In this document: piece after piece, positions 52 through 64,000 of the stretch
Position numbering within the stretch: the stretch's first letter is position 1
Layout of the letters: every line of letters starts with the position of its first letter
Assembly (NCBI GenBank): GCA_905178155.1
Contig: CAJINV010000006.1
Coordinates: forward strand, 4,285,760 to 4,349,759
Direction of reading: 5' to 3'
Length of the DNA: 64,000 nt
Source of the DNA: Amoebophrya sp. A120
Lineage: Eukaryota; Protista; Dinoflagellata
Made by a program: the position numbers and the translations under genes
The notes under the pieces: model-generated
Seen by the model: only the letters and a program-made list of their open reading frames with translations
What the model was told of the DNA's origin: nothing
Database searches by the model: none

Positions 52-3000
52 CGCGACGGTGTGACGGCGCAGACGGGGTACCGGGAAAATTTGAAGCAAA
101 ATCTCCCGATTTTGTCTTTCGCGCTGGAGGATTTGGGCGAGGAGAGTTTTTATCAAATGCAAAAATGTCTGGGTCTGGAAGAATGCGAGTTTGTCATGCT
201 TGTCTGGCGTGACTCGACAATCTGTGTTGTATAGGGACGAAAAGGCCCCCTTACCTGTCATGCAAAAACGCAGTTTGCCATGCGGAATACGTAAGACATG
301 GCAGCCAACAAATTTGTCATGCATAGGTGCGCATCTTTGCAGTGCGTTTATCATTCACTTTTAGCATTAGACCCAGACATATTTGCAATCCATAGTTTTC
401 TCACCTCAACACCAGCCTCGGAGCAGCTGCAGCCGTCTTCTTCTGACGACGGAAGAAATATCGTCGGAGATGAAGTTGAGGTGGATCAACATCACCATGA
501 TGGCCATAATCAACATCTGCTAGATGAATATTACCAAACCCCCGCAACTAGAGGTACATCAGCTGCAACTTCTTCTACCCGATTGCAACTCCCGCTGGCT
601 CATTTGGTGCTCTGTGACGAAAGCAGTGCTAAAAGTGGAAGCGCTTCTCCTGCTCGTGCTATCTCTTGCTACCTCGCGCTCAGCTGCGCGGGTGGTTGTG
701 AAAGAAATAATGGGGATCATCTTGTTCACAGCGGAATAAATGACGGCTCTAGAAGAAGAAGTAATGGAGGTGACAGCAGCAGCGGTGCAGAAGCAGATAC
801 GCTCCAGGACAATGACAACGATGGGATTCCGCAGACCGGGTCTTTTCTCTCCGACGACGGCTCTGTATCAATTGCAAATGATATGTCTGGGTCTAGAAAG
901 CTGTGATGCTGTATTGCGCATGACTGCAACGCTTGCAGTTGCAGCCAAGCATGACAAACTTTCGGGCCGCTTTCTGCTGCCCGACGCGCATATACGAGTT
1001 GCGTTATTTTGCGTAACAAGGGAAGGAGCTGCTCACTTGCTGCTCATGCAACACAGGTTTCCCAGGAATGCAAGACACGCATTACAAGTTCCACCTTTAT
1101 TGCAGACCCAGACGTATTTGCAACGCACACTTCGACGACAGCATCGATTTGTCGGCGCAGCACATCTCCTTCGGCAGTCTCGCGGTGTCCGCATTTGAGA
1201 AGCTGGTTTTCAAGCAGAACTATCGAAAAGAAAAATCCCCCCTCCCCATATCAAAACGAAATTTCTGATGCTGGATTTGTGTACACAAATCCGAGCTGTC
1301 TTGCTGGAGAGCACTGCAGGCCCATACCAAGTGCGAGTAGAAGCGTTTTGGCTTAAGCACTTGACATGAAAAACGTCCGCGCTGTAGGCCCAACAGCATG
1401 ACAAACCGTCTGCACAGTGCGGCGGTTGTCTCCGCAGTTGCGTTCTTATGCAAGACAGACACGATTTGTGATCACAAATCAGCATCACAAATTTCCAAAA
1501 ATATACCTTTTCAGTATGGGAAGGGCGGATTTTTCCTTTCAATAAGAACCGGGTAGGGTTTATGCTCCTTACTCGACAAGACGAAGGAACTACATCGAGT
1601 TTCAACGACGAGAACGCGAAGACCAGTCAGTGGGGGCACACACGACCAGGCGCTGTAGTTTCAGTGGCCGAGGAGCACCACCAGGATCTTCCACGTGGTA
1701 CCAGTGGTAGTTCTCCAACCGCGTCTACCGTCGGTATTACCCCCTCATTCGACTTGCAGCAGGAGCAGCAGCCAACAGAAGGACCAAGAACTTTTCACAT
1801 CCCCATCGCGGCGACGCCTTTCGCCGATCCTCGTGGGGAACAGTCACGACCAAAAATGGCAGTCACTCGTCGTCCGTGGCAAGAACAGGTTCAAGGCACA
1901 GGGCAACCTCCTGCTCCTGCTAGTGCTCCGACTTCCACAGGCGGTATGCAAGAAAATAACCGTGTAAAAAGTGTAAGTATAGTGTATCATGATGCAGAAA
2001 GTGCAAAACTGGTACACTTTTCATGCCACGAAGTCCTCTTTTCCTGTAAGTTTTCACGTGCTAGCTGTGCATGACAACTTTCTTTTCTGTCACGCGGAGC
2101 AAGTTTGTTATGCTGTCCTTCCAAGACGCCTACACGGACACATTTTTTTTCTTGGATAAGCGGTGGTTCCAGTGGCCGCGAGGACACCGCCAGCGCGACC
2201 GTATCAAATGCAAAAATGTCTGGGTCTGGAGGATTTCTAAATTTGTCATGCATATTTTGCATGGCCCATGGTGTCTGTGATGCATGCCGTAGCATCACAG
2301 TTTTTTAGAGCGCTTTGTGATACCTCTACCGCATGAGAAATGCCCTCTCCGCGTAGCACAAACTGCAGTCCTCTTGCTGGTCATGCAATACAAATTTTTT
2401 TAGAATCCAGAGACAGCATCACAGGTGTAGAATGTTCCAGACCCAGACATATTTGCATTTGATAGGTCGAAGATCCCTACAAAAGCCTCTTCGATCGGCT
2501 GTTTGGAACGAGCGGGATTAGTAAAAGTTCCGCAGACCATGACCAGGCACCGAGCGACAGCTTCTCCTCCGGAAGGAGCCAAAATGCTGGCTTTAGAAGT
2601 AGTACCAATTACGCCAGCGACGGCGCTTTGGACGAGGAAGAGCCTGTACTAGGTATCAAACAAAAAAGTGTTAGCCTTAGCGGTTTGGGTTTTCACAAAT
2701 GGCAGTCATGCATAATAAAAATTTTGCCTTCCATGCATGCTACGCAATACAACTTTGGGCACCTTTTCTGATGCGTTACTGCATCACCAATTCCGTTAAC
2801 GTTAACACTTTTTCTTGTGATACTAGGACTCGGGCCGCAGCTCTCGTCGAACGTCAACACCCTTGGGCGGCGGAGAACGAATAGGAGGGACGAAGAGGGC
2901 CTGCATCAAACTTCTAGTAGACTAGCCACTGATGATCATATGCAATTACAGAAATCTTCCGTACATCTACATGTACAAAATGCATCACAAATTTCACCAA

Positions 3001-42313: not shown

Positions 42314-45300
42314 ATGGCATCATCGAGGAGCAAGCTTGTCTACTTCCTGTCCGCCGCTTCTGCGGTGGAAGGCTTGTCTGTGTTGCACAAGATCAAGGGG
42401 AAGCACGGTGGGCAGAAAACCCACCTGAAAAATAAAGTCGCAGCACATGAGGATTCATCATCTGCGACGGCAAGTAGAAGTGCGCATGAGCATCACATTG
42501 GTGTCGGTCACAAGAAGAAAAAACACCAGCACCAAAAGAAAAGCGCGAAAAAACCCGTGGACTTGTCAATAACAAAGAACTATCAAATGCAAAAAATGTC
42601 TGGGTCTGGAAGAATGGCAGGCTTGTCATGCAGGTTTTCCATGGTCCATAATGTGTGTAATGCATGAGCTAGCGTCACAGATTTTTCGAGGGCTTTGCGA
42701 TGCCTCTACCGCCTGAGAAATGCCCTCTCCGCGTAGCGCAAACTGGAGCCCTCTTGCTGGTCTTGCAATACAAATTTTTTATAGAATCCAGACACAGCAT
42801 CAAAAGTGTAGAACCTTCCAGACCCAGACATAGTTGCATTTGATAAGAGCCGTCCGGCGGTAGATATTGACCCACGACTGAAGCCCTTGCGACCTCCGCA
42901 GGGTGACAGAACAGCCGATGCTGGCGTGGTCCCGGGAACAAAAGGGATGGAAGGCGGAAAAGTCGTCGGTAAAACCATAAGTTGTTTTTGTTGCAGATGA
43001 CAAATAAAGGATCATAAACTTGTAATGCGATGAAGCAGACAGCAGATATTTTTTTTTTCAGTTCCAACCAATGAGCCCGAACTTTGTCGTGGACCAATAA
43101 AACAAATGAAAATCATTAAGGAAATCAAAAGCAAAAATACGCTACAACAGCCCACTTTCCGCACGCCTACCACCCCGAAGCGCATTCGCACAACGGGATT
43201 CTGCCGGACAGCAGTGCGCCCAAATACACCGGTATCGCACGAAAAAACTGTCTCAGTCTCAAACCCTTGCGGAGTCAGCGTTGCAAATTTGCGAAGCGAG
43301 AAACAACAAGGACAAATCTCTGATGCGTTCAAACAGCAAGAGAAAACACGTACGAGAGACGACTTTCTTGGATCTCCAGCATGAAAAAAAACTTTCTCAA
43401 GGAAGTTGCGCATTACAAGTTGAGACTGAGACAGTTTTTTCTCACGATAACCGCTGACCAGGAGGAGCTAGAGTACGGTGATCCGCAACTGAGTCTATGC
43501 ATTGCAAATGTGTCCTCTGGGCGGTCAGTCTGGAAAGTTGTGATGCTACTGCGCGGATGATGCGTAACCCCCCTTACGGGGCCGACCATGACAAATTTCT
43601 GAGCGAGGACTACGTTTAGCGTAAATCGCATGGCAACTCGCATTTCTGCATGAGAACTACAATATGGTGCTATAGCGCAACACGCATGACAGACTTCTCT
43701 CTCTTTTGTTAGACAAGCATGACAAAGATCATCCAGACCCAGACAGATTTGCATTTGATAGAGTCACAAGCACCGCAATGGCAAGCATAATAGCAAGCAC
43801 GCAAAGCACAAGTCGCAAATCCAGCGGCGGTACACAATCAACAGCAAAACCGGACTAGAGACACACGAGCCAGACCAGTGTGCGGATATCAAGAAGTATG
43901 CAAAGAAAAAAGTTCTACAGTTGCACGTTGCGTTGCAAAACATGCAAGACAAACAACCTCTGTCATGCGCAAGATGCTTGTGAGCCTCGTTTCATGCGTG
44001 TTTTGCCTTCTGATCTCTGCATTTACAAGCTTTCTCTGTGGTCATGCAAGGCAGATTTGTCATGCTGAATCCGCTTGCAACGTGTAAGTATAGCACTTTT
44101 TTCCTTGGATAAGAAGGAGTTCCCAACCGATGAGGAAAAGCACACGACTATCCTGAGTAAAAGAACCGGCGTTATTTCTCATGAGAAGCATTGTCTATAT
44201 TGTAATTACGTTTATCGATTTCTTGCCATGCAGCCCTTGGTAAAAATCCGGGTCAGACAGGAACTACAGCGCTGTAGAAGGTACTGTCATGAGCAACTAC
44301 GACCCTGGCCGCCCCATGACTTGTCTACTACACTTTCCTTCCTGAGGACTCTGGCGTGTGAGCAACAAGAGAGTTCCCGTAGTTTTTTTTACACAGGATA
44401 GCGCCCTGCTGTCTGGAGCATGCGAACCCACTTCTGGCGCATCAGAAAACATTATCAGAGTGCACAACTCCCCCTCTCCCTCATTTGCGTAGCATGAACT
44501 ACGGCAATGTAAGCATCAGCAAGAGTGCCGGTTTTGCATGACAAATTTGCGCTGGAGTGTAGTGCTATTTGGGCTACCAGAACTTGTCATGCATAATAGT
44601 GACAAGAGGGAAGGCGTGGAGTTAATATTTTGCATGAGAAATGAGAACGAGGGGGAGTTGTACACTCTCATAAACATACACGGTCGAGTTGAAGAATTTT
44701 CAGAACGTGCAGTACTTCGGGGACATCGGGATTGGTAGTATGATGTAAAGAACACGCCCCCGGTGGCCCGTATCTCCGAGTGGAGGATAGAAAAGGTCAA
44801 GAAATGAGAAAGAGTTTATTTCGGGTTGCATTTTTGTTGCGTGGTTCTGGGCCCTGTGATGATCCACCACGTGATCATGATGGTTATTTGGTCTCGAAAT
44901 CAGCACCGACGTGGCCATGGAAAAGAATTTCTTAACGCGACCCGCTAGAGGCAATGCATGGCTGTGTGCTACTACTTTATTTTCACCTCTACAGCTGCAC
45001 TCCTCCCACCAGGGTCGTGTTTTTTCCCTCGGATACCCGGCAAAGGCGCGGCTGGCGCTGCGTTTGCCCTGGCTGACCAAACTGGAACTGGCGAGAGTGT
45101 AGCGGAAGGTGACCAAGATGCTGGAATGAGCGCATTACAAGTTTCCTCTTCTTCCAAACAAGAACCAGGAGCGGACAGCACGGCTTTAGCGTCCGCCGGT
45201 GGGGAGATGGCGTACTTTCCGGCGATTTACGACACCGGATCGTTTGAGATCCTGGTTTTGTCTGCGGAGTGCGAACAGTGCAAGGGGCCGGGGTACAATC

Positions 45301-48300
45301 CGCAAGACACACCGCTGTACGACTCGAAAAGCTCGAACACCTTCGCTCTCTTCGCCACAGAGGAGGAAAACAAAGATATCGTACGAAAAAATTGTTTCAC
45401 TGTGGACCTGTGATGCAGAAAATGGAACACAGAAACATTTGTCTTGCTAGACCTGCAAGAAAGTGGATTTTCAAGCGTGTTTTCCCTTGGGAAGCGCGCA
45501 TGACAAATTTTCTGTGTCATGTGTAACAAACTTGTGATGCAGATCTTGCAAAATCATCACAGTGAAACAGTTTTTTCGTGGGATAAAAGAAGCAGAAGAT
45601 GCGATGAAGGCCTGCGAAAAGGAAAAATCCGGGGATGAAGTGTGTGAGTACAGGGTATAAAAGTTGGTTTATGTTCTTGTTCGGAAATTTGTGATGCAGA
45701 AATTATCCACTTGATAGAAGAAGTTTGTCATGCCGTGAGTACCTACCTGAAAAAGCGAAGAAGTCTTTGGAAATAATCCAAATGCGACGAGATAAATCCA
45801 CCTGCAAACATAAGTAACATTATACACAGCGCGTGTCCGCGCAGCACATGTTCGGATCCGGGTATCAAATGTAAAAATGTCTGGGTCTGGAAGAATGCAA
45901 CTTGTGATGCTGCATTTGGATTCCAGAAAAATCTGTATTGCATGAGCATCAAAAGGAATGTAATTTTTGCTACGCGGAGAGGGCATTTGTCATGCGGAAT
46001 AGGCATCAAGAAGCTCTCAAAAAATCTGTGATGCTAGGGCATGCATCACAGACATCAGGGCTCATGCAAAACGTGCATGACAAGTGTCAGAATCTTCCAG
46101 ACCCAGACATTTTTGCAGTTCATACTGGGCCGACGCAGTCCATTCGCGGGTACGAAAACGTGAAAATGGGTCGGGATGAAGATTTATGCTGTGCAAAAGT
46201 ATCGTACTCGTATAAATGCATTACAAATTTCCTCAGCATGAGAACTGGATTTTGTCATGCTGTTTTACCTTAAGGACAAGATTTGTCATGCATAAACGCA
46301 ATTGGTACGAGAACGAGTGCGATACTCTTGCAATTCATAAGATTCGCCGGTTTTGGAATACTTTCCCTTTTGGCAGGTGGTGCAGCATCAGATCGCCGCC
46401 TGGGAATCCGGGGCGAAATTTTCCGCGATTGTCGGTCTGGGACCCCGGGACCACGTGCCGGGAATGAGCGACACTAGTATTGATTTGTTTCTGTTAGTAG
46501 TTTGTCATGCGTTTGCAAATGCAATCATAGTACTCACTTGAATTATGCCGACAGTAGTTCTTGTGAACAACAGTTGCAGTCCTCTACTCTGGTTTTTATG
46601 GAGCGCAAGTTAGTCCCTGTGATGAGTAAAAAGTTAAAAGCGATCCAAAACCGACGTTTCGGAAGCTGCATTGTGCAGAAGGAATGAGTATGGTCTACTA
46701 TGGTTTATGCAGTATGATTAAGAAAGAAGTAGTCTATTCGGGGACTACCTTGCGCTTTATATCTTTCGGAACTTTTGCAATCCACAGATGAAGACTCTAT
46801 GCGAGTGTGAGACAAATCCAGACAAAGCGCGCGCGCTTGCTCGAGGCAATCACTCAGAGGCTTTTTTCTGGAACTGCGGGCCGCCAAGCTGCAGACGCAG
46901 GTCTCTTGTCATTTTCCCGGGCGCTTCGTGCTCTCGCCCATGCCGGCCAACCCCCGCCATGACTCTGCGAACGGAACCCAGCAGGAGCCGCCAGAGTCTC
47001 TGTGAGGGTGGGGGCGCCGGCCTTGGGTACTTTCTGCAGCAAAGCATACGCCGCGGCCTTTTTTTTCAACTCGGAGTCGCCAAAGTACAGGGAAAAGCCT
47101 TTTTTGTTGTTCAAAAAAGCAGAATGTGGCGCAAAAGAGACAGCCGAGCTCGGGAATAGAGGGAGCGGGATGATGGCGGCGCGCTGTTGGCGCGCCTCTT
47201 TCTCGTCGCCCTGAGTCTGCGCGCGCCTTGTTACACGTCCCTTGTGCTTGCCCAAGGCGGTACGGTGCCGCGCGCAGCCGCAGGCAGTTCGTGTGCCCCC
47301 CTTCTTACCTTCTTCTCTCTCCGTTGTCCAGTTCGAACCCCTCCAGGGGAAAGAAGCTTACTTTTCTCGTCAGTTCGAACCCCGCCAGGGGAAAGAAGCT
47401 TACTTTTCTCGTCAGTTCGAACCCCTCCAGGGGAAAGAAGCTTAGTTTCCCACTCAGTTCGTTCTCTCTTTATTCATCTTCTCTGTTTTCAGTTCGTTGT
47501 TCGTTTACTAAAGTTGTAAAACTCGAAAACTAGAACCACATATCTTTCGGAACTTTTGCAATCCACAGATGAAGACTCTATGCGAGTGTGAAGATGGCTT
47601 GGTGGGAAGATGGCTGATGCGCGGCTCTTACAGTGCAAAGAGTTCGCGTGCTTCAGCTGTTTTTCAGGCTATCTTCGGGTGGTGGTTTGAAGAAGTGGAT
47701 TTGCCTTTTTACATTTGGAGCGCCAATGCTGGCGTCTCAGACAGGTCGCAGCGCGATGTGCTGCGTCCGCTAGATCACGACATACCCGCGGGAACTTCCC
47801 GGAACTTAGTCACGATTGGGAGCAAGACCCCGCAGCGCCGCCCGGGTTCCGGGCTCCACCGCGGGGCCCTACCCCGGCGCGTTTCCCACGTGCTCGCTAC
47901 CTAGCTACAACACAGCCCCGCGCGCCTGGATCTCTGCACCGACAGAGCCAGGCTGCCCCGTTGAGTCACATTTGGGGAAGATGTTCGGCGGGCCATGTCG
48001 TGTTCCACGGCTTGGCCCACCTTCACGTCCGGGGCGTGGCTCTGTGGGGTTTGAGAGCTTGGCTTGCGCGGCTTGCTACTTGTAGCTTGCTGTGCCGGCC
48101 GGGTTCTCTTCTTGCTGGCCAGTGTGACCGTCGCAGGGCGTCCCGCGACGAGGACTGCAGCGCGCGTCAGCACTGCCTTCGATTATCATCGTTTCCGCGC
48201 GCTTTCGCTCGTTGGGTGAATTGCGCTAGGAATGTGAATTTATATGTCGTGCGTAGCAGTTATATCAATTTACATGATCAAGCAAGAGGGTTGCACACTC

Positions 48301-51300
48301 CGACATCGGGCTGGCTGCCCGATGTCGACCAGCTTCCGCTGGTTCTCTGTCCTCTATCTAGAATCTCCGCTTCGTCTGGGCTTGCCTGGACTCGGCGTTT
48401 TTTCCCCGCCCTCCCACCCAGCTGCTGCATCTTCATTGCGAGAGACTCCACATTTTTTCACTTTTGCAATCCACAGATGAAGACTCTATGCGAGTGTGAA
48501 AGCGAGTTGTAGGCTGTCTTTTTAGTTTTACGCCTACTGGCATTGATGGAACGAATCGCGACGCAAAGTTATTCTGTTGTCATGCTTACATACAATGCCA
48601 CCTATCTATGTCGTGGCGGCAAGAAAGCGGTATGTCGTTATTTCTCGTTGACGGAAAAACTATGCGATGCCAGCAAAACTAGAAAAGGACAGCATACCAT
48701 ATCGTTCGCTCCCATACCTCGTGGGTGCGACAGCAATCCGCACAGGACGATAGACTACAATCTGATATGGCTTGCTCAGATGTTACAATCTCAAACGTGA
48801 GGACGATGAAGTCTGGAATTTGTGTTGCATGAACAGCATGGGCACCATACAGAGACTTGCGCTTTTCGCATTACAAATAAAGAAGTAGTCTATTCGGGGA
48901 CTACCTTGCGCTTCATACCTTTCGGAACTTTTGCAATCCACAGATGAAGACTCTATGCGAGTGTGAAGATGGCTTGGTGGGAAGATGGCTGATGCGCGGC
49001 TCTTACAGTGCAAAGAGTTCGCGTGCTTCAGCTGTTTTTCAGGCTATCTTCGGGTGGTGGTTTGAAGAAGTGGATTTGCCTTTTTACATTTGGAGCGCCA
49101 ATGCTGGCGTCTCAGACAGGTCGCAGCGCGATGTGCTGCGTCCGCTAGATCACGACATACCCGCGGGAACTTCCCGGAACTTAGTCACGATTGGGAGCAA
49201 GACCCCGCAGCGCCGCCCGGGTTCCGGGCTCCACCGCGGGGCCCTACCCCGGCGCGTTTCCCACGTGCTCGCTACCTAGCTACAACACAGCCCCGCGCGC
49301 CTGGATCTCTGCACCGACAGAGCCAGGCTGCCCCGTTGAGTCACATTTGGGGAAGATGTTCGGCGGGCCATGTCGTGTTCCACGGCTTGGCCCACCTTCA
49401 CGTCCGGGGCGTGGCTCTGTGGGGTTTGAGAGCTTGGCTTGCGCGGCTTGCTACTTGTAGCTTGCTGTGCCGGCCGGGTTCTCTTCTTGCTGGCCAGTGT
49501 GACCGTCGCAGGGCGTCCCGCGACGAGGACTGCAGCGCGCGTCAGCACTGCCTTCGATTATCATCGTTTCCGCGCGCTTTCGCTCGTTGGGTGAATTGCG
49601 CTAGGAATGTGAATTTATATGTCGTGCGTAGCAGTTATATCAATTTACATGATCAAGCAAGAGGGTTGCACACTCCGACTTCGGGCTGGCTGCCCGATGT
49701 CGACCAGCTTCCGCTGGTTCTCTGTCCTCTATCTAGAATCTCCGCTTCGTCTGGGCTTGCCTGGACTCGGCGTTTTTTCCCCGCCCTCCCACCCAGCTGC
49801 TGCATCTTCATTGCGAGAGACTCCACATTTTTTCACTTTTGCAATCCACAGATGAAGACTCTATGCGAGTGTGAAAGCGAGTTGTAGGGTGTCTTTTTAC
49901 AATTACTGGCATAGAAGTAGGAAACCGGACGACGGAGGATTCATTTTTGCACACTGTTGCCATGCATGTTGCCGTGCTCAGTATGCCGCAATTATCCCCT
50001 GTCTCAGTCTCGTTGGCAGAAAAATAAACATTGCTTTATGCCAGTAAAAGACAAAGCACAGCATACCACATCGTTCGCTCCCATACCTCGTGGGTGCGAC
50101 AGCAATCCGCACAGGACGATAGACTACAATCTGAAAGTTCGCTTTTTTTTCCTGGCCTACAAAAATGGGAAAAGACCTCCAGGTGAGCACCCCAGTGAGC
50201 AGAACAACACGGAAACGCTGCTGGAACGCGGAGACGTGAACAAATTTTCCATCTGTTATGCAAGAAAAAAACTGTGTAAGTGTAAGTCTGTGATGCAGGA
50301 AATGCTAAACTGTTACACTTGTCATGCTAGAGGTGCGTCATAGGCCACTTTCATGGGTGTTTCCACGTACTAGCTGCGCACGACAGGTTTTCCCTGTAAT
50401 GCAAAGCGAATTATTGTGATGCTGATCTTCCTACAAAGTATACACTTACACAGTTTTTTTCCTGGATATCTGTCTCAGTCGGGGCAACACGGCGGACCAG
50501 GCAATTGCAGAGTCGCAACAGGAGCAGCAGGCGCAAAACTGGCCGCCGGGCTACCTCACCTTCAACGCGAACTCTGATCAGGGCGAAACGCAGGTCGAGG
50601 TCGTCGGAAAGGTGCACTGGGCGGTCCACATGACAAAGTTCGGCATCAAGCACGGAAACGACTATGAGAGTGCACAACTCGTCGTCTCCCTCCCTCTCAT
50701 GCAAAACACCAACGCCACCCTTTGCCCTTTGCCACTACTATGCATGACAGATTCCGAAAGGTGCCGAAACAGCACTAGAATCTTCGATCACCAGGCTCCT
50801 GTCATGCAAAAACTGCATCTTTGCCAAAGCTTGTCTTGCTGTCGATGCTATCCAAATTATGGGGGAAATAAGTTGTGCACGCGCATAAAGGCACCAGTAC
50901 TTTCATCAACTTCTGCGACAACGAATTTTCGGAGGGTGCTGGCTGCGCTGCCATTATCGACTCCGGCACTTCCCTGCTCGCCGCCCCGTCCGCCGTCATC
51001 GACGCGCTCCAACAGAAATTGCAGATCAAGGAGGACTGCTCGAATTTGGACACCTTACCCGATTTGGAGTTCACGTTTGGCAAGGGGACGCAGTTTGTCG
51101 AGCAGTTTAAACTGCCGCCGAGTGCGTACTATGCATTGCAAATATCTACTCTGGACGACGTCTGGAAGGATGCAAACCTGTGATGCGCGTTTCGGATCAC
51201 ACAAAAATCTGTGATGCGTGGACAACATAAGCAAAAGCGGGCCAATTCTTGTCATCGAAATGATCGGGGATTTGTCATGCGCATAATAGGCATTGGGAAC

Positions 51301-53461
51301 CTTGTAAAAACTTGTGATGCTATTGCTAGCGCTAGAGGTTCTCGCATGCCAGACCATCTCAGCCATGCAAAAACAGCATGACAATAAACATCTGCCCGCA
51401 TGATCCAGAGGACCACCCGGGGATATTTGCAGGGGATACGTACGTGATGAAGATTCAGCACTCCGAAGACACGACCTCCGTGCAGGACTGGTTTTTCGGG
51501 CAAAGGAAGTCCACGCAGTCGGTCGCCTATCCTGCTGTAAAAGTTGTATTATCCGATCGCACTTCAATGTCCACCTAATTGCAAGAATACTACCTAGCAT
51601 GACAGATCTGTTCTCTACAGGGAAAATAGCATGGCAAATTCTTGTTCTATTTTTCATTGCCGAAACAAAAATTTTGCAATGCAATTTCAGTACATCACTA
51701 CTGATGCGATCGCGATGCTTTTCTGCACCTGCATAGTGCCTGCATCCCGGCCTTCATGCCCATGGACAAGCAGGACGCCAGGCTGGGGAACGTGTTCATC
51801 ATGGGCATGCTATACAAAGAAAAAAGTGTTACAACAGCGACACGTTGTATTATTGCGTATTAAGCAAGACAGACGCGATCTCTTATGCCGGATGTGCATA
51901 GGAGAATGGTTCCCATATGTGTTTTTCCTTCTGATCTCTGCATCGCAGGTTTATTTTTCTGTCATGCGGAGATGACAATTTGTGTTGCTAAATGGAGACC
52001 ACAGGAGGTGTTGTCACTGAAACGCTTTTTCCTGTGATACATGTCGTTCCTCCGCCACTACCGCACCACCTACGTCCGCGCGGTGGGCTCGTGTCTATGA
52101 GGGTGCACAACTCCCCCTCCCCCTCATTTGTATGGCATGAACAGCATCACAAACACCAACACAAGTGGAGCCTGTGCATGACAAGTTTACGCACCGAATG
52201 TAGAAGTCGTGTTTTGGCTTCCGGAATTTGTCATGCAAACACTGCCACAATACATCAACGGCATTTATTGGGGTTTTGCATTACAAATGAGGGGGAGGGG
52301 GGGTTGTGCACTCTCATAGTGTCCACCGAAGATGTACTTCGACGAGGTGGATAACAACTGCAACAAGTATCGCAAGAAAAAACTGTTTCACTGTAAACTT
52401 GTGATGCATAAAATGGAACACAGAAGCATTTGTCTTGCTAAACATGCGAGAAAGTGGATTTTTAGCTGTGTTTTAGATCTCTTGGTGCTTCGGCACTTCG
52501 AGGTTTAGGGTCGGAACGTTCTCAGCACTGCTGAAGCTTAAGAAGAAAGGGGCGTGCACGCCCTGGCCTTCAGTTTGCTCCGCCATTATCTTTTTGACGA
52601 TCGCTTTACAAATCCTCCTTTTTTGCTCTGCCTCTTGTTCCCCGGGCCCAACTGGCACCAAGCAGTTTTTTTCCGGGCTTTTTTTCCGGTCTAGGTTTAG
52701 GTAGGGCCCCACCGCCGCCGGCACGGGATGGCTGTCGTCGCGACCGTCTCACCTACGATCTACGCCTTCTCCTGCTGCACAAGTTCGATCCGGAAAGGGT
52801 TTAGGTTAGGTTTCAGGGTTTAGGATATCCACTTTTAGCTGTGTTTTCCCTTAGGAAGCTCGCATGGTAAATTTTCTCTGTCATGCGGAACAAACTTGTG
52901 ATGCAAAAGTTGCAAAATCCTTACAGTGAAACACTTTTTTCCTGTGATAACAAGGTCGGGGGGAGTGGTAGCGGTGCCGCGGGTGAAAATAAAAGTGAGA
53001 CTACGGGACTCAACAGCGAAGACACCGACATGGCGTTGCTCCACTCGTTATGGATTGCAAATATGTCTGGGTCTGGAAGGTTGCAACTTGTGACGCTGTT
53101 TTTGGATTCTAAAAAGATGTGTATTGCATGAGCAGCAAGAGGAGCCCAGTTTGTGCGACACGGAGAGGACATTTCTCATGCGGAATAGGCATGAGAAAGC
53201 CCTCGGAAAATCTGTGATGCTGAGTCATGCATCAGAGGCATCAGGGGTCATTCAAAATATGCATGGCAAGCCTAGCAATCTTCCAGACCCAGATATATTG
53301 GCATTCGATACTCGTCATCAGAAGTGGAGTCCCGCAGTGACCAGGCAAACAGTGCGGAGCTGCGGCTGAAGAAGATCCAGCGGGAAGTGGTGCACATCGA
53401 TCCGAAGAAAATCCGGATTCCGAATTGGGCGAAAGGGGACGCGAAGGGGATTGTGCTGTGA
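42314..53461 (+). CDS. Secreted pepsin-family (A1) aspartic protease; 18 introner introns and 3 GT-AG introns, one of 3.7 kb
   Basis: Signal peptide, then LKNFQNVQYFGDIGIG, catalytic IYDTGS and IIDSGTS, flap HMFGSG, AIVGLG, FSICL, HWAV and FIMGMPFLRHY. Introners: 42581-42845, 43233-43449, 43496-43760, 43897-44111, 44149-44400, 44453-44672, 44739-45035, 45377-45585, 45863-46124, 46185-46339, 50257-50468, 50663-50887, 51130-51438, 51528-51735, 51811-52039, 52096-52318, 52368-52949, 53049-53310. GT-AG introns: 42969-43150, 45655-45829, 46477-50182. Confidence 0.92.
45377..45585. mobile_element. Introner family H representative (about 205-215 bp; TIR TATCG...GAAAAAACTGTTTCACTGTG)
   Basis: TSD AAAGA/AAAGA. 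Also 33604, 43233, 52368, 60037 and 60350. Confidence 0.9.
46811..47539. mobile_element. Cassette A (729 bp) flanked by a 52-bp direct repeat
   Basis: 46759-46810 is identical to 47540-47591. Contains three 42-bp tandem repeats. Confidence 0.6.
47329..47460 (+). repeat. 42-bp tandem repeat x3 inside cassette A
   Basis: CAGTTCGAACCCC(T/G)CCAGGGGAAAGAAGCTTACTTTTCTCGT at 47329 and 47371, with a diverging third copy at 47413. Confidence 0.9.
47593..48459. mobile_element. Cassette B copy 1 (867 bp) flanked by a 41-bp direct repeat
   Basis: 47552-47592 is identical to 48460-48500. Virtually identical to 48968-49834. Confidence 0.65.
48879..50134 (+). ncRNA. Putative structured ~350-nt module, copy 2, interrupted by cassette B
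   Basis: Same X-R-hairpin-Y order as copy 1 (X 48879, Y 50058-50134). Confidence 0.45.
48968..49834. mobile_element. Cassette B copy 2 (867 bp) flanked by a 41-bp direct repeat
   Basis: Only one difference from copy 1 was noticed (A48305 vs T49680). Confidence 0.65.
50257..50468. mobile_element. Introner family D representative (about 200-215 bp; TIR TAT..AAGAAAAAAACTGTGTAAGTGTA)
   Basis: TSD TCTGT/TCTGT. Also 1945, 4284, 43897 and 56151. Confidence 0.9.
52096..52318. mobile_element. Introner family F representative (about 215-240 bp; TIR TATGAGAGTGCACAACTCCCCCTCCCCCTCATTTG)
   Basis: TSD GTGTC/GTGTC. Also 14593, 21273, 44453 and 50663. Confidence 0.9.
52475..52832. other. 358-bp foreign insert with degenerate TTTAGGG-like repeats inside family H introner 52368-52949
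   Basis: Flanked by the 15-bp duplication TTTTAGCTGTGTTTT (52460-52474 and 52833-52847). GGTTTAGG(G) motifs at about 52502, 52693 and 52797-52824. Confidence 0.75.
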
Positions 53462-53628: not shown

Positions 53629-53907
53629 TATCCTGAGCAAAAATGTACCCACCCCAGAGTTGTCATGCAGATTTGCAGCTACAGGGAGATTTGTAATGCG
53701 CATCCACATGAGAGGCGTTTCCAATCGCGTTTTGCGCTTTGTAATGCTGTCGACAGGATGAGAAGATGGATTTGTGTTGCGGCTGTACTTGCTAAACTGC
53801 ACTACAATACAGAGACGAACTTGTCATGCTGGACCCCCAAAACTTCTCGATTTGTGTTGCGAGATCCCCAGCTTGACTCTGGTGTGGGGACGTTTTTACA
53901 TAGAATA
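53629..53907. mobile_element. Family E element about 170 bp downstream of the protease stop codon (probable 3' UTR)
   Basis: TSD AGCGG/AGCGG and family E TIRs. Confidence 0.85.
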
Positions 53908-55091
53908 AGCGGCGGGAGAATTTTGTGTCAACGACACGTGTCCCGTCGAATGAATGACAAACTCAAAGTAAGTTGAAGAAGTGCCTGCAAGTTTCCTCGT
54001 CTTGCAGGCAGGAGCACCACAGCTTTTTGAATGATTTGAATTCCTCAACGATAGAGAACTTTTTTGACGACCCGAATGATAGCGAGTTAGTAGCGAAACT
54101 TCTAATCTTGCTGGTATAAAAATTGAAAAGTTGGTACGGATTCAGAATTGCTCTTTCAGAATGGACTTTTTTTTCCTAGCGTTAAAATGTTTTTTCAAAA
54201 TAATCTTTTTTCGACATGCAGTTTTGTTTTTTCAACAAACCACAGCCAATGCCGATTCGGAAGTCTATCCCTACTGGTAGCAAAGAGTTGTGCCCCCGCG
54301 GATAATATTTCCTTCGGTGCAGTAGAAGTCGGCTGTGTGGTAGTCAAGACAAAAATGCTCCACCCTTACGTTTCTTGAATGCATTTGTTTCAAAAGAATT
54401 TCAAAAATCACTCATGAATGTCACTGTATCTATCTTTCTTCTATTGATGAGGTCCTGTTTTGAAGGAAGTAAAATGAACTCTTCAATCAGCACTAGTTAG
54501 GTACGATCCATCGTTCTTTCTCGACGACTCAGAGATCGTAATCGTCTAGAAGAGCGGGAGGTTTTATTTGATGAAGCCTCGTCTGCAGTTCGTCTTTGTT
54601 TCCAACACTTTCCTCGATTTGTGTAAAGAAATTCGCTCCATTCGTTCTTATGATCGTCCTGATTATAGAGGGTCGGTATCAGTTGCAGATAAGTGCTTCG
54701 ATTTTCTGCCAGCGCCAGTGCCTCTTTCCAGGAGGTGGTGAGATGGATTCTCCACTTCTCGAGAGATCGAGCGCGCAGCGGAGACGGACAGAACGCGAGG
54801 GAGTTTAGAAGTTTCCGAGCGATTTATTGTCGTGGAATTAGAATTAACTTCCCAGGTTGATTCGCTCATGCCGTGCGTATCGTCCGTGCCACCACGAGTG
54901 GTGGGGCGTAGCATTGATTCTTCAGGAGCATTGTGTTGTACTACGGCGAACAAGACTGAGGGAAAAGGACTCAGGAGCGGGTGGTCATTATTTAATGGGA
55001 TCTATGATTAGATGAAGTTGATGTTGAAGATGTAAATAAGCTTGAGGGGAGGACGGAGAAGAACGAATAGCACGAAAAACTTGGAAAAAAA

Positions 55092-58000
55092 ATGTCGTCC
55101 TTCTTCATCACCGAGCAAGAGCCTAATTCCGCCGACGAGGCGCACACCGCCGGCGGACACGAAGGCGGCAATTCTACTCCAGAAGACTACGAAGACCATG
55201 CACGGCAAGACCTCTCCACGCCAGAAGAAATAAATCCGAGAAATAACCAGAACAACAAGCAGCTCGCGACCATAAATCAACCGACCAAACCGAAGACCAA
55301 CAAGAACAAGCTCCCCGCCGAGCACGCCAATGTGAAACAGGGCACTTCGTTCTGGGTCGCCGAGCCGTCGCTGATTTGCCGCGCCGGGCCGGAGTTGGAA
55401 ACCCCCGAAACCTCGGATCCATGTGGGCGAAACCGGATCGTGTACTGCGCGGGGAAGTTGGTGCAACTCCCGAACGGCATCGTCCGAATGCCGATCACGA
55501 AAACGGACGACAGGCTCCACGAGAAGTTGTCGAATTTGCAGCGGCAGAAGTTGGTCCACTGGGTGACGTTGGACGCTTCGTCTGTCGACTATGAACAGGA
55601 AGAACCCATTCCCATCCATTTTTTGCATGACAAACAAAGGATTTTGATACGTGTTTTGCATGACAAATTGGATGGGGACGGGTTTTTTTCTGTGGATATC
55701 GATTGGCGGAAAAAGCACATGCTGGTTATCAAAGTGAAAAAAGCCCCCACCCCATATCGGAAACGGAAGATGCGCGAATTTGTGATGCTGTATTTGAGTA
55801 CTTACACAAATCGACTTGTATTGCTAGAAGGCCAAGAGCCAAAGCTGTAGCCTAAATTGCAGGTAATCTTCTGTCATGCTGTTTCCCACTTCCAGTTGCC
55901 TCCTGTCATCCTGGAGCTGCAAGGCTTTCCCACGCTAGACAGCGCTACAGTCTGCATCTTTTGCCTTCTAGCATTACAGAGCTGATTTGTGACCACAAAT
56001 CTGCATCACAGATTTCCGTTTTGATATGGGGAGGGGGCATTTTTAATTGTAATACTGGTCGAAGTGGGAGACGAGTTGCTGTTCTTCAAGGTCTTTCTCA
56101 TGCAGAAGTACGCAGCAAAAGATACAGCAGCTTCCAACGCGGGCACACCTTATCCAAGGAAAAAAGTGTGTAAGTGTAACTTTTTTGCAGGAACAGCATC
56201 ACAGATTTGTTTTGCATGACAGAGAAAACCTGCCATGCGTAGCTAGTACGCGAAAACACGTATGAAAATAGCCTGTGATGCACATCCAGCATGACAAGTG
56301 TAGCTGTATTGCAACATCTGCAACACAAAGTTACACTTACACAGTTTTTTTCTTGCATACACCTGCGGGCGGGTTCAGTGCGGACGGGGGAGCTGAGCAG
56401 GATCTAGATCTGTTGAAGCAGTCCTCTTTGTCCACCTCTGCATGGTACGCGTTTTATCGGGATATGGACCGGAATAACAACAACCTCGTCTCCATGATCG
56501 AATTCGAAGCGGTATTGTGAGGAAAAATCTTTCCTCCCCATATTGAAAGCGCATCCATCTTCTGGAAACTTGTGATGCAGATTTGTGAACACAAGTCGCG
56601 TCTGTCTTGCAAGAGGGCAAGTGCAGGCTGTCCGGCACGTTATGCAGGCGATTTGTAATGCTGCAAGCCCTACAGGGCAGCCGTCTGCCATGCTAGGCGC
56701 CTACACCAAAAGGCCCCGCCCTAGGGTTGCGATCTGACTGCGTGCAGTGCTCTACTGCAACACGGATTTGATTTGTGTACTCAAATACAGCATCACAAAT
56801 TTCTTTGTCGATATGGGGAGGGGGGATCTTTCCTTCTGATAAGCGGGGTTGCTTTCTTTAAAATACCCCGACGAATCCACGGACGCGTCGAGTCGGAAGA
56901 ATATCCTGTGCAAAAGTACCGTACGCGTAGTAATTGCAAGCATGGATGACAGGGTAAATCCGCGCTACAAATTGTTCCATGTGTCATGCTGAGCCAAGTT
57001 GTATATGCAATTTCTAGTATTATTACCTAGGTAGTGCGATGCTTTTGCAATGCATAAAGAGAAGGAAGAAGCTACTCCAGTTGTTAGATAAGGACGGCTC
57101 CGGCGAGCTGACATTTGAGGAATTCGGGCAGGTCCTCGGGTTCAGCGAAAAGGAAATCTACAAGGCAAAGGATGACTACCAGAAGAAAAACCTCGGGAAA
57201 GACGTATGCAATGTAAAAGCATCGTACTAGTATGAATTGCATTACAAATTAGCCCAGCATTACAAATTGAATTTGTAATGCTGATTCACCTTGAGAAAGA
57301 AATTTGTAATGCATGCATGCAATTACTACGAATACGATGTTGCTTTTGCTCAGGATAAGACGGGGTGAATCGCAATATCCGGTGGAGCGCGACGGAAGAA
57401 TTTGATTTCCACGCGAGAATCAAAGAGTACGGCAGGAGGTCCCGGAGCACCACGCCGTCGCAGCGGCACTTATCCTGAGTAAAAGCCCCACACCCCATAG
57501 TCAAGTTGGGAAACCTGCAATACAAATCAACAAGCTTTGGCTGTTGCCCATCACAGGTTTTGGCTTGCAATGTGATCGCGTTTAGCTAGCGCAGCTGCGT
57601 CACAAATCTAGCATCTTATGCTGATACGAGCATCACAAATTTCAAAACAGCACTAGAGATGAATGCGTCCTCTCATGGGGCTCCTCCGCATGAGAAACAT
57701 TTTAAGCATGCAGATTTGCATGACAAGAACTAAGTAAGTATGGGGTGTGACGTTTTTCCTCAGGATAGCACTCGAAGAAGATCTACACGGACGAATCCGT
57801 GCGGAAAAATATTACAGTGAAAAATGCCCCCACACGTCCGAAAGTTGCAATAATTTGTGATGCGAAGTTTCCAAATGAAAACTTTTTGTCATGCGTGAAA
57901 GAACTATGAGTCTTACCTTTCTGATGCAGAGTCTAGTCGTATACAGCATCGCTTGCACCATCACAAGAGCTGCTCTTGCTGGGATCTTTTGCAATGCAAA

Positions 58001-61000
58001 TCTTTGCTATTCACGATTGAAGATCTGTGATGCTGATACATGCAAGAGAGCGAGTGTTTCCTTTGGAAAGGTTTGCAATACAAATGCTTGAAGTTCATCT
58101 GGGGTGGGGGCATCTTTCATTGTCATAAAAAAGCACATGCGCATGATCTCTGCCAGCGACATGTCGCCGGTGCCGCTGTATTGTGAGGAAAAATCCCCCC
58201 TCCCCACAGTGCTCAAAACGGAAATCTGTATTGCTGATTTGTGACCACAGATCGTCTCTCTCTTGCAAGAAGGCAACTACGTCAGAGGTGTCCGTCGCAC
58301 TGCGCGGCGGATTTCTGATGCTGTTGGACCTTCATGGCAGCCGTCTAGCATGCGAAACAGAGACTATACGCAAACAGCCCCAGCACAACTCAGGCTTGCA
58401 ACCTGCCTGCGATTCCATCCTGCAAGACAAAGCGAATTCGTGGACACCAATCCAGCAACAGAAATTTCCGTTTCAAGATGGGGACGAGGGATTTTTCATT
58501 TTCATAGGCTCCTGCCGGGTGGTCGGGTGTCGAAATCAGCTTCTTCAAGTAGGTCGAGAACGAATTTGAGCTCCGCGGGAACGGGAACAAACAAGTCCAT
58601 GACGAACCAGTCCTTGACAGACGAATCAACGCAGCAGGGCGGTGGAACGACGTTGCAAGACCACGCTTTTCCCGAAATGGAGCAGCAAGACGGGCGGGGA
58701 ACGAACTATATATGCAATGCAAAAGCATCGTGCTCGTATAAATGCATTACAAATTTCCTCTGCGTGGTGAGAAATAAAATCTGTAATGCGGATTTACCTT
58801 GCCAAAGAAATTTGTAACGCATGATTGCAATTACTACGACTACGAGTACGAGTACGATAGTTTTGCACAGCATACTACAATCGGTTTAGCAACGACAACA
58901 TGCAACAGGGGCAGCAAAGTGCTGGACAGCATAGTCTATCAAATGTAAAAATGTCTGGGTCTGGAAGAATGCATGTTTGTCATGCTTGTCTGGCATGACT
59001 CTTGAATCTGTCATGCAAGTTACCCAAGAGCCCCATTTTTCTGTGATGCAGAAGCGCACTTTGTCATGCAGAATAGGCAACACCTGGAAGCTCAGAAACT
59101 TGTGATGCTGAGCCAGCATTTCTGGCCTCATCATGAGACGCCACCCAGCATCACAAGTTTCCAGACCCAGACATTTTTACATTTGATATAGTCAACATAT
59201 GAAGAAATCCAGCTCTGCAGGGACCACAAATTCAGCTCCTATCAAACGCAAAAATGTCTGGGTCTGGAAGGATGCGAACTTGTGATGCATACTTGGATCA
59301 CACAAAAATCTGTCATGCTTAGACAGCAAAGGGAGCTTGCTCCTTTTCCTGTCGCCGAAAGAAGATGCTTGTCATGCGGATTAAGCATTGCGAAACTGTC
59401 TCAAAACCTGCGATGCTAGGCCTTGCATGGCACACCTTCTGTGTCAAGCAGACACAGCATCACAAACCTCAGCAACCTTCCAGACCCGGATATTTTTGCA
59501 ATGTATAGCTCCTTCGACGAGACAACAACAGCTGAGTTCCGCTGGCGGCGGAGCGAACAGTGCAACTACCGGGAATAATGCGATGGAGCTCATTCCCTTG
59601 CAGGAAGACCAGCAGATGACAATGATCTCCGAGACAACGACAATTATCAACCGGTCCGCAACTATGGAACTGTCAGGATCGAAATCAACAAAATCGAAAT
59701 AATTTGTGATGCATAAAATAGATACCAGTTGGAGCCTCAGTTTCCAAGTGGCGCATGACAAATTTCAGGAGCTGCACCAAAATCCAGTCTGTCATGCTGT
59801 TTGGGCAAAGAAGGCTGCTCCTGTCGTGCTACTCTGGCAGCACATCGCCTTCCCCTAAACAGGCTTGCATCGGTCTCATTTGCCTGCTCCCCAACACAGG
59901 CCTTACTTGCCCAACATTTTATGCATTACAAAACTTTTCGAATTTATCGCTTTCGATCCTGACACATCCATAGCAACCGCACCGACCAAAACTACTGCCG
60001 AAGAGCCGCCAAAGGAATTCGACTACGCCGCTTTTGTATCGCAAGAAAAAACTGTTCCACTGTGAACTTGTGATGCATAAAATGGAAGATTGAACTATTT
60101 GTCTTGCTACTTCTGCAAGGCATCGGATTTTTAAGCGTGTTTTCCCTATGGGAAATGCGCGCACGGCATGTGTAACAAACTTGTGATGCAGATCTTGCAA
60201 AATGAAAATTATCACAGTGAAGCAGTTTTTTCGTGGGATAGTTTAAGAAGAAGCAGCAAGCACCAAGCACTGCGCCAACAACGCTAACCGACACGAAAAA
60301 CCAGAACAATCCAGGGTTCAGTCGGAAGTCCCACATTGTTGACCACCCATATCGTACGAAAAAAGTGTTTCACTGAAAGGATTTTGCAAGTTTTGCATCA
60401 CAAGTTTGTTCTGCATGACAGAGAAAATTTGCCCTGCGAGATTTCCAAGGGAAAGCACCGCTAAAGATCCATTGTCTTGCATGTGTGGCAAGACAAACAC
60501 TTCTGAGATACATTTTCTGCATTACAAGTTCACAGTGAAACAGTTTTTTCTTGCGATAACCCGAAACGGTGGACCAATCGGTACGGGCACGTGGATCCGA
60601 AAACGCCGAAGCAGTTTCGCGACTCGTTTGACGGATTCGGGTTGTTTTCTACGGAGCATTTGATCATGCAACAGGAGTGGAAGATCCCGCCCGGTACGGG
60701 GGAGGACGACTTTTCCCAATCGAAATGGCGATCGTCCGGTGCACCGCCCAATTGGGTCGACCCGAAGAAGGCGCTGCAGAAGAAGAAGGACAACATGATC
60801 ATCGAAATGAAACTGTTCCGGGATTTATCAACTTCAAATATGTCTGGGTCTGGAAACTTGTAATGCTGAGCTGTGAGAAGCAAGTAGTGAATTCTCTGTA
60901 ATGCACAGCCAAGCATGAGAAATCTTTGCGCTGCTTAGTGTTACGCTTTCCGCATGACAAAGTGCGTTTTGCATGACAAGCAAGAAGGTCTCTTCTTGGA

Positions 61001-64000
61001 CACGCATCACAAACTCTTCCGTCATGCCAAGCAAGCATGACAAACCTTGCATCCATCCCGACCCAGACATATTTGCAATGCATAGGATTTTCTGGAGTCC
61101 AAATACGGGGCGTACGGCTATGAAGGGATGGAGCGGATTATCCTGAGGCAAAACGATCCCACCCCATAGTCAAGATGGGAAATCTGCTACACAAATCCCT
61201 AAGCTTTGGCTGTCGCGCATGACAAATTTGGGCTTGCAATGTACTTTCGTGTTTAGCTTGTGCAGCAGCGTACCAGATCCAGTTTGTCATGCTGATTCGA
61301 GCATGACAAATCTCACAGCACCACCGGGAAACGCCTCTCATCCTCATGGGTCTCCGCAAGAGAAACACTTCAAGCATGCAGATTTGCATTACAACTCTGG
61401 GGTGGGGACGTTTTCGCACAGGATACGGATCTTCAAAATGATGGACACGAACAGCTCTGTATCAAATGCAAATATGTCTGGGTCTGGAAGGATGCAACTT
61501 GTGATGCTGCCTTTGGACTCTACATAAAATCTGTATTGCGTGAACAGCACAAGAGGTGTAATTTGTGCTACGCGTATGGCGGACGCAGAAACTTTTCTTC
61601 AAGAAACTTTTTTTTTTTACCCATGACCTCGGCCTGTGCATGATAGGCCTTGCAACTTTATATAACGGGTTTACGAAGGGAGTAGCAAGCCCTGCCACGG
61701 CTCATGCCAAGCCAATCGCGTAAGCACTTGCGAAGACGCTTCAGCAGCAACAGGTGCTGCGGGCTTTTGGTGTTCCGCTAGTCTTGGTCCCGTGTCCCTT
61801 TCATTCCCGCACGCCAGCGCCCGTCTTAATCGGGCTTGATGCTACCGGGGCACGCGCCTTCTTGCGCAGCACACGCTGTGCGGAGGCCACCTTCTGTGTT
61901 TCACCGAAGGAGCTGACAAGTGCGCCGCCTGAGGTCGCCATCCCCCTTCGAACGTATTCTGGCGACCCTTAGGGAGGGTAAAATACGGCCCAAATAGCGT
62001 TCTCAAGTGCGGGAAGGCTTCTGCGCCGTTTCCGGAAGCAACGTCGCGGAGAAGGGCGCTGCCGGCCCTTGGCCAATCTGCCAGAACCCAGCGCGACGCC
62101 GGCGACCGTGCGCATAGACAAACCAACCCGCACGAACGGCGCCTCTTGCGCAGAGTTGCCTCGTAGCTCGAAGATGTCCGACCTCGTCTTGAGGAGACAC
62201 GCCGAAAACACCAGAGGGGGGCCCCTCGGAGGGGGGTTGGGGGGGTGGGTTGCGCGACCCCCCCTGCGTCCATCATACCATGCGGGCTAGCAAAAAAAGG
62301 GGGTCCCGAAGGGGGGGGGGTTTACTCCCCCCCTCCGGGGCCCCTCGAGCCGGCATTTTTGCGCTGCCCAAAAGGATTTCCCGTTGTCTGCGTTGCCGCC
62401 AGGCCGGGCGAAAGACCTGGGGGCTTAGGGCAGTGTGGGGAAGCCCGGCGGAAGAAAGCCCACTGCGCGCGGGGCTCTGCGAGGTTTTTCTCGTTCTAAG
62501 CTAGAGCGCCTCCACGCCGCTAAACCTCGGCGGGGCCCCGCAGAACAGCAGCAGAGAAGATTCAAAGCAACGCCCGTCCTTTCCTCTGTTTCGGGGGTAG
62601 TGAGGTGATGCGCCCAAGCCATGACAGCCCGTCGGCACCTCTCACACTGCTAACGCGTAGCTTTGGTGGCACGAGGAGCCGGCGATAGTGCCTGCTCTCA
62701 CAGTAGCCATCACCCCCTGCGGCAGGACCCTCGCCGCACGCACAGACCCTGAGAGGCCGCTTTCCAATTGGTCGCCGAATGCCTGAGCGGCTCAGACTGT
62801 TCGTCCTGGGTTCTCTTTCTAAGCCGGAGTCAAGGAATGGCTGCGCTAGCGGTTAAGCCGTCCTATCAAGAGGGGGCCGGCGGCAGGCGAGCAAAAATCG
62901 ACGGTAGGGCCCGCGCTTGGTATTAGGATGCACAGCTATGGGCAAAAAAAAAAGTTTTTTGAAAAAAAGTTTCTGCGTCCGCCATAACGTGGAGAGGAGA
63001 TTTCTCAAGCGTTATGAGCATCAGAAAGCCCTCGCAAAATCTCTGATGCTGGGGCATGCATCACAGACCTCATGGGTCATGCAAAATCTGCATGACAAAC
63101 AACTGCACTCGCCCAGACCCAGACATTTTTGCAATCCATAGTCCGACCGGTTGGGCGTTTCCGCGTTTACCGCGGCCTTGCAATCGACTCTGAAGTACCC
63201 CGACGATGGCTCGATTTCCTTCAACGCACAGAGAAGACGGGTGAATCTGTTTCTCATCATGGATTTGGACGGAATGGGGAGCTTGGATCGGTACAGAGTT
63301 GTACTACAGTTTTGTTTCAGTATCTTGTTGTGATCATGTAGTTGTCATTCTGCAACGCAAATCGCTTTTCGTTTGCGTTTCCCGCATGACAAATTCATCT
63401 AGCCTCGATGATTAAAAAAAAGGTACGAATTCTGCCGTGGTTTGACCCAGCAGCTGGACGCCGGAGTGAATCTGGACGAGAAATTATTGCAATGAAAAAT
63501 GCCCCCACCCCGGAACTTGGGAGCATTTGTATTGCAAACCTTTCCAAAGGAAACACTCGCCCTCTTGCATGTATCAGCGTCGCAGATTTTCAATCGTGAA
63601 TAGCAAAAATTTGTATTGCAAAAGATCCCAGCAAGAGCGGCGCTTGTCATGCAAGCGGCGCTTTATACGACAAGACTCTGCATCATGAGAAAGATTCATA
63701 GTGCTTTCATGCATGGCAAAAAGTTTTCATTTGGAAACTTCGCGTCACAAACTACTGCAAAATTCGGGGTGGGGGCATTTTTCACTGTGATAGAAATTCA
63801 CCCGCCGCCTCCAGCGGTGGGGTAACGAGAAATCGAAGTGGGTTTTGCTGGCGAAGGGGGCGAAAAATTTGAAAAAACCACCGCGGAAAACGTGGCACGA
63901 TTCTTTGTCCATCGTGAAGCCCGAGAACCTATTGAGAGGAAAAATCCCCCTTCCCCATATTGAAGAGGCATCTTTTCGAAAATTGATGTTGCTGATTTGA
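55092..64000 (+). CDS. 3'-partial EF-hand calcium-binding protein (two EF-hand pairs); 20 introner introns and 1 GT-AG intron within the window
   Basis: EF loops DRNNNNLVSMIEF, DKDGSGELTFEEF, DTNSSDRLGVSAF (degenerate) and DLDGMGSLDRYEF appear after splicing. Elements removed: 55590-55698, 55727-56054, 56151-56359, 56513-56841, 56902-57056, 57205-57357, 57471-57767, 57810-58127, 58179-58506, 58711-58874, 58937-59188, 59240-59507, 59663-59972, 60037-60240, 60350-60558, 60826-61084, 61139-61425, 61460-63140, 63485-63792. GT-AG intron 63291-63422. A further element starts at 63930. Confidence 0.85.
61575..62986. mobile_element. 1.4-kb non-autonomous TIR DNA element nested inside family A introner 61460-63140
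   Basis: About 50-bp TIRs TATGGCGGACGCAGAAACTTTT...CCCAT and TSD ACGCG/ACGTG. It splits the family A internal sequence CTACGCGGAGAGG. The interior is GC-rich with no credible ORF. Confidence 0.9.

Follow-up and report, generated by a model that had tools for sequence, protein, structure and literature searches.

A conserved internal motif at preferred distances from the ends of A120-type introners in Amoebophrya

In passages of Farhat et al. (2021; PMC7789003), the introners of Amoebophrya A120 have ends that consist of TAT, seven variable bases and a run of A. The same passages divide them into 1,954 families, for which a tie to a transposase was not achieved. Putative transposases are placed there only in A25, a general mobilisation by transposases is argued against, gain by copy-paste is favoured, and U1 is given as undetected in A25 or A120. 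A passage of PMC12130899 classes one A120 introner family, which has integrase-like homology, as Ginger ('5-bp TSD, TA/TA Termini'), and in the account of PMC12005148 such elements are restricted to part of the genus. Phased subterminal transposase sites are an architecture well known from other transposons; for CAST elements, for example, a 10-bp period of activity is described for the spacing of transposase sites (in passages of PMC10201428).

We define "the window" as the whole 64-kb stretch of DNA analysed here. It carries eukaryotic genes that are interrupted every few hundred bases by elements of 110-330 bp with inverted ends, and these elements are Amoebophrya A120-type introners, a class already published. 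Their ends start with TAT and carry at least three A, direct repeats border them, their removal is non-canonical and the host is an Amoebophrya. For the exon at 45039-45371, the best hits are to Amoebophrya (65% to A25), and both of the named matches among the five protein matches are Amoebophrya aspartyl proteases.

Statistics were computed on the window together with 131 loci (499 kb) from one metagenome-collection record set. The scan of the collection used the end pattern of family 0 as query and recovered 132 stretches, kept as 131 loci, whose copies reach 95% identity to those in the window. This choice of query over-represents family 0 (180 copies), and tests were therefore collapsed by family or lineage. 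A detector based on end pairing, duplication and A-tract yielded 458 distinct elements, of which 69 lie inside the window and make up 28% of it; it gave no false positives in 128 kb of Markov-simulated sequence. Clustering of the interiors of elements up to 360 bp, longer ones having been dropped beforehand, produced 44 families, 13 of them with at least three copies. Among the 13 consensuses, those of families 4 and 6 and of families 5, 8 and 12 are clearly homologous (z 8-23), and the rest show weak spacer similarity (z up to 7) or none.

The element ends are inverted (TAT...ATA), with TAT followed by seven variable bases and an A run. A stands at positions 11-14 of the end profile in 82-94% of elements (n = 458), a profile partly set by detection, which required TAT or TAC and rewarded an A-tract. 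The target duplication of 5 bp is perfect in 351 of the 458 elements (77%) and other lengths (2-4 and 6-9 bp) are found in at most 10%, with 6 bp in 0.0%, under a detection score that favoured 5-bp duplications. The duplications display no base preference across the 458 elements. Element length has no periodicity (R at most 0.18, 48 subfamilies).

The motif, which the earlier note had reported from the window as TGT[ACG][AT]TGC, is a real cis-feature of this known element class. In the form TGTN[AT]TGC it occurs 331 times in 64 kb, compared with 19-45 times in 15 Markov simulations of order 1-3, and 233 of 317 strict matches fall inside the 69 catalogued window elements. That it is present in all main families is borne out by the 13 families with at least three copies, all of which carry it. 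The two central bases, said to vary freely, are in fact biased: counts at position 4 are 140, 103, 74 and 14 for C, G, A and T, and at position 5 they are 237, 80, 20 and 17 for A, T, C and G. The motif is also longer than first stated, extending to approximately AAAYYTGTVWTGCW. The outermost copies, described as generally reading inward, do so in the consensus at 18 of 26 family ends and point outward at the other eight, among them the right end of the elements labelled D (50257) and H (45377). Of the quoted offsets (0-based), those of 58937 (41, 72, 105, 125 and 164), 45863 (40, 71, 125 and 164) and 50257/45377 (32 and 63) were reproduced; element 151 has strict copies only at 41, 105 and 164, its positions 72 and 125 being degenerate. 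The description of these elements as unrelated families does not survive alignment. D and H align almost without gaps (142 of 213 columns, 67% colinear), and 58937, 151 and 45863 belong to a single family, so the evidence first quoted comes from two lineages. Coordinates are collected in Table 1.

Two features of the spacers may be recorded here. At either end of elements in families 4 and 6 (e.g. 55727-56054), the spacer between the paired motifs (32-33 bp) is occupied by a small palindrome, GATTTGTG..CACAAATC. Some motif pairs enclose a degenerate inverted copy, at +15/16, which is only weakly general (3-5% of sites).

Table 1. Coordinates of the introner at 58937, its motif copies and other elements of the window
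Feature	Position	Strand	Remark
Introner element, family 0, 252 bp, TAT...ATA, 30-bp perfect inverted ends	58937..59188	.	contig gap 98 observed, 98 predicted
Left copy of 5-bp target duplication (TAGTC)	58932..58936	+	
Right copy of 5-bp target duplication (TAGTC)	59189..59193	+	
Left terminal inverted repeat: TAT, 7 variable bases, A-tract, family-specific core	58937..58966	+	
Right terminal inverted repeat of the 58937 element	59159..59188	-	
Motif, first inward site, offset 41 (~4 turns)	58978..58985	+	
Motif, partner at +31 bp, offset 72	59009..59016	+	
Motif, offset 105, only in part of family 0	59042..59049	+	
Motif, offset 125	59062..59069	+	
Motif, offset 164	59101..59108	+	
Motif, first inward site of right end, offset 33 (~3 turns)	59148..59155	-	
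Family 0 copy	151..394	.	71% identity to 58937
Family 0 copy, skipped in likely RNA contig	45863..46124	.	267 = 262 + 5
Family 3 copy (H), skipped in likely RNA contigs	45377..45585	.	214 = 209 + 5
Family 3 copy (D), homologous to H	50257..50468	.	
Family 2 copy, six sites, all on transcribed sense strand, skipped	53629..53907	+	
Family 2 copy, five sites, all antisense to transcript	57471..57767	-	skipped by gap arithmetic
Family 10, smallest element (109 bp): two ends and one 32-33 bp motif pair	55590..55698	-	
Non-canonical intron, decayed-element look, no motif match, skipped	44734..45038	+	
Decayed element, no strict motif, one weak matrix match, skipped	44149..44400	.	257 = 252 + 5

The first inward site lies 32-33, 41-44 or 52-55 bp from the element end, approximately three, four or five helical turns. 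Collapsed by lineage (n = 12), the offsets are 32, 32, 33, 33, 33, 41, 42, 43, 44, 44, 52 and 54. These values have a best period of 10.4 with R = 0.85 and a scan-corrected p of 0.0007 (p = 0.0001-0.0007 across four nulls and the period scan); the period interval, 9.65-11.1, takes in the pitch of an RNA helix. Families of one or two copies, some of which are decayed relatives of larger families, supply 25 further first-site values with R = 0.54 (p = 0.0006-0.024). For comparison, the seven numbers first quoted give a period of 10.3 with R = 0.84 and p = 0.003, the period having been picked afterwards. Within lineages, four shifts of the first site measure 8.8, 10.7, 9.9 and 9.3 bp (p about 0.01-0.03). 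Offsets shared by a subfamily occur only at 32-33, 40-45 and 54 (35 of 35), though partly as states that are merely inherited, and single-copy offsets fall outside these positions in 12 of 25 cases. The families may share a deep ancestor, which could reduce the independent events to three classes and four shifts.

The recurrent step of 31 bp noted earlier, about three turns, is confirmed: in 10 representative families, distances of 31-33 bp account for 15 of the 34 spacings between same-strand sites, where the maximum of 20,000 null draws is 10. Spacings of 18, 28, 39, 49 and 74 bp, off a 10.5 grid, occur as well. After collapse by family, helical phasing holds for the first inward site and its partner at +31-33, but not for the deeper sites across families, 25 of which have no significant common phase (R 0.20-0.31, p = 0.09-0.39). 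Eight outward-pointing first sites likewise have no significant common phase (p = 0.10). Families 0 and 2 keep phase at 10.3 throughout; families 4 and 6 deviate by roughly a third of a turn. The phasing is local, from tip to first site and from site to partner. To place the whole array on a single face of the helix was an overstatement, given deeper sites that share no phase.

An alternative is that the spacing was inherited from an ancestral internal duplication in one founder element, such that the motif is selected and its phasing is a historical accident. The homology within families 4/6 and 5/8/12, the weak links among the others, the tip pattern common to all families and the lack of phase in deep sites are in keeping with such an origin, and a lone spacing of 31-33 is one value rather than a period. 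The pair spaced by 31-33 bp is nonetheless found repeatedly, at several positions and on either strand, and its spacers are dissimilar; the four within-lineage shifts are all of 9-11 bp, and private offsets scatter where shared ones do not. We consider a purely historical spacing decidedly unlikely.

Substitution rates in motif and spacer, a comparison that the earlier note had proposed, separate the two clearly. Private changes, scored in 381 elements against three agreeing close neighbours over the six core bases, amount to 2.7% per site in cores and 7.2% in spacers, a ratio of 0.37 (95% 0.33-0.42). The two copies of the target duplication mismatch at 5.2% of sites, or approximately 2.6% per copy if both copies drift. 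Relative to half the duplication mismatch, the core rate comes to 1.02 (95% 0.79-1.36), which fits neutral decay after insertion. Over four bins of divergence the core rate follows the duplication mismatch, and the spacer rate climbs from 2.4% to 13.6%. We infer that the motif is selected during copying and little after insertion. The duplication clock is rough, as the detector preferred intact duplications and coding constraint acts on one of the copies, and it leaves room for a modest constraint after insertion.

This timing bears on the proposal of a host DNA-binding or chromatin protein that would recognise the sites and act after insertion, in packaging, in transcription or in marking introns at the DNA level. 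Independence of strand and helical spacing would suit any protein that binds a duplex, the motif is found about five times per kb in the window, and a Pfam scan of the 126 longest open reading frames (of 168 of at least 230 aa in ~560 kb) detected no transposase or integrase domain. A chromatin role after insertion is not favoured because the cores decay at about the estimated neutral rate. Moreover, the positions of the sites are set relative to the tip of the element, a distance that a chromatin factor would have no reason to measure, and no 10-bp period of A/T dinucleotides was detected in the family consensuses. Such a host protein is, in our assessment, unlikely.

Evidence on intron removal comes from contigs of three sets. 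X3 and X5 contigs, which are RNA by guess only, omit elements together with one copy of the duplication; of the 15 joints shown (87 in all), nine equal the element plus 5 bases. Two canonical GT-AG introns are skipped there as well. Two raw-read RNA runs, X9 and X10, have next to no coverage of this DNA and were left out. Across 55032-60820, seven gaps in one X5 contig all match the loss of 15 elements with one duplication copy each, including 58937-59188, although for most of the 15 the removal is read from gap arithmetic and not from a displayed joint. Removal of the elements in this interval opens a frame of 680 codons on the + strand. X1 contigs read through the elements, as DNA would. Their summed depth over 54900-62100 is ~200,000 in element bins and ~45 for unique pieces, which is in line with very many copies and is not a copy number.

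At three elements with imperfect duplications (44149-44400, 45863-46124 and 50663-50887) the joints retain the first bases of the left copy. In two of them the cut falls 0-1 base ahead of TAT and 4-5 bases past ATA, a position with which the third is compatible. Other introns of the window depart from the common form. The intron at 45654-45828 is canonical (GT-AG), starts with GTATAAAAG and contains two copies of the motif at a distance of 36 bp; its appearance is that of a decayed introner whose splice sites are now canonical. A 3.7-kb GT-AG intron at 46477-50182 contains a direct duplication of ~1,375 bp (identical open reading frames 47569/48944 and 47715/49090) and, at 46597-46761, a small TAT...ATA element. 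The 582-bp family-3-like element at 52368-52949, which likely has an internal insertion, is skipped as a single intron of 587 bases.

The 28 skipped introns lie in two genes, both on the + strand, and the orientation of the motif within them does not affect their removal. In 53624 and 60037 every site is sense, and in 55590, 57471 and 60350 every site is antisense; intron 44734 has no motif site and 44148 no strict copy. Since introns are skipped with sites sense, antisense or absent, we do not regard the motif as a splicing signal. A role as an RNA signal for unusual splicing, read by a protein or a small RNA in place of the missing U1, would have suited elements that are non-canonical introns, precisely skipped, and the description of U1 as undetected in A25 or A120. 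Three antisense introns and 44734 speak against it, as do the folds of two introns, in which a terminal stem forms and the motif copies show no systematic pairing. We judge this role very improbable.

The terminal hairpin is strong (z -8.6), and it raises another possibility, namely that movement of the elements involves an RNA or single-strand hairpin as intermediate, in which case the spacing would correspond to an 11-bp RNA helix to which the copying machinery binds. A value of 11 lies inside the period interval, and the copy-paste gain favoured in the passages of Farhat et al. would agree. The sites at the two ends, however, are often not mirror images (55 versus 44; one-way families 2, 3, 5 and 10) and would thus not lie within the hairpin duplex, and the fixed TA...TA ends with a 5-bp duplication suggest a DNA reaction of the integrase type. 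A hairpin intermediate of this kind is highly unlikely.

We regard it as likely that the motif is a subterminal binding site, on double-stranded DNA, for a putative transposase (or a helper) that would copy these non-autonomous introners. The motif is repeated near both ends and conserved over its spacers, as in a subterminal transposase-binding array. The idea that one protein binds the duplex while spacers turn over is upheld by the conservation of the cores, by three first-site classes about 10.4 bp apart and by indifference to strand, but it does not extend to phasing of the whole array on one face. Among the three proteins offered for the array, the transposase fits best; an excision or splicing factor that reads RNA is unlikely, and a chromatin factor acting after insertion is not favoured. 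For the transposase, one protein at the tip (TAT, seven free bases and the A-tract) and others at the internal sites would share one face of the helix to pair the ends. Variants that move the first site by a whole turn would still jump, and others would fail to spread. The enzyme may be of the integrase-like DDE kind, related to IS3EU, GingerRoot or Ginger, a suggestion drawn from the TA...TA ends and the 5-bp duplication. After insertion the motif would be dispensable and decay, and splicing would depend on the paired ends.

No autonomous element was found by a search for long inverted-end pairs or by Pfam in ~560 kb, a small part of the genome. Used as the query of a protein search, 26827-27828 returned no match. 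The end pattern was also looked for in viral contigs, where its two matches are at chance level and lack the structure of an element. An unbroken open reading frame at 39123-40784 carries three DUF285 stretches (E 1e-82), a bacterial-type family, in a region nearly free of elements and motif.

A broader proposal, which we put forward tentatively, is that a single integrase-like transposase is behind the entire invasion by A120-type introns and reads a two-part code, a TAT/A-tract tip and a motif whole turns away, with the core of the inverted repeat largely ignored. If so, that core would be free to diversify into the ~2,000 published families while the ends still pair for splicing. Each element would then carry two separable codes, a DNA code that serves jumping and an RNA hairpin that serves removal, and the 109-bp unit with one motif pair would represent a minimal mobile intron. 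For the spread of tens of thousands of non-canonical introns in a parasite, a shared motif with a spacing rule provides one handle: it offers a bait for the mobilising protein and a pattern for finding autonomous copies, and it could separate the requirements of jumping from those of splicing.

Tn7 makes a 5-bp target duplication. The ends of Tn7 and CAST elements, with their TnsB sites (in passages of PMC9308760 and PMC10201428), resemble those of the window elements in having arrays of weakly conserved transposase sites, unequal at the two ends, with spacing by the helical pitch, a likeness that in the window elements is confined to the first inward site and the 31-33 bp pair. They differ in being bacterial, in their TG ends and in a first site ~8 bp from the tip. 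In the window elements, which are introns, a family-specific inverted repeat precedes the first site, at 32-55 bp from the tip. The eukaryotic cut-and-paste transposons piggyBat, Tol2, Ac and Tag1 likewise have short internal transposase sites repeated near their ends (in passages of PMC11707139), but theirs belong to single elements, while the motif described here spans many families with different inverted-repeat cores.

Among eukaryotic elements with similar termini, IS3EU and GingerRoot share TA...TA ends, inverted repeats and the lack of target preference (in passages of PMC10045372 and PMC6839031). The duplication described for them is usually 6 bp, in contrast to 5 bp here, and we do not class the window elements as members. 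Ginger2 has a duplication of 4-5 bp but ends in TG...CA, unlike the TA...TA ends with 5 bp of the window elements. The IESs of Paramecium, as treated in passages of PMC3408717, are also transposon-derived inserts in genes with a signature of helical phase (a 10-bp period in size). IESs are cut from DNA and their period is in length; the window elements appear to be removed from RNA and have no length period.

The closest relatives remain the A120 introners themselves, with which, in passages of PMC7789003 and PMC12130899, the window elements share the end pattern of TAT, seven variable bases and an A run, the direct repeats at their borders and the non-canonical splicing; the supplement rows list similar family lengths (149, 209, 305, ~260 and ~320 bp). 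An internal motif or spacing rule in these introners is apparently undescribed, at least in the literature searched and in the text of the supplements of the two main papers. In those portions the published descriptions deal with the ends and contain neither a motif common to several families nor a rule for its spacing; the window elements carry such a motif with local helical spacing, together with a target duplication that measures a fixed 5 bp.
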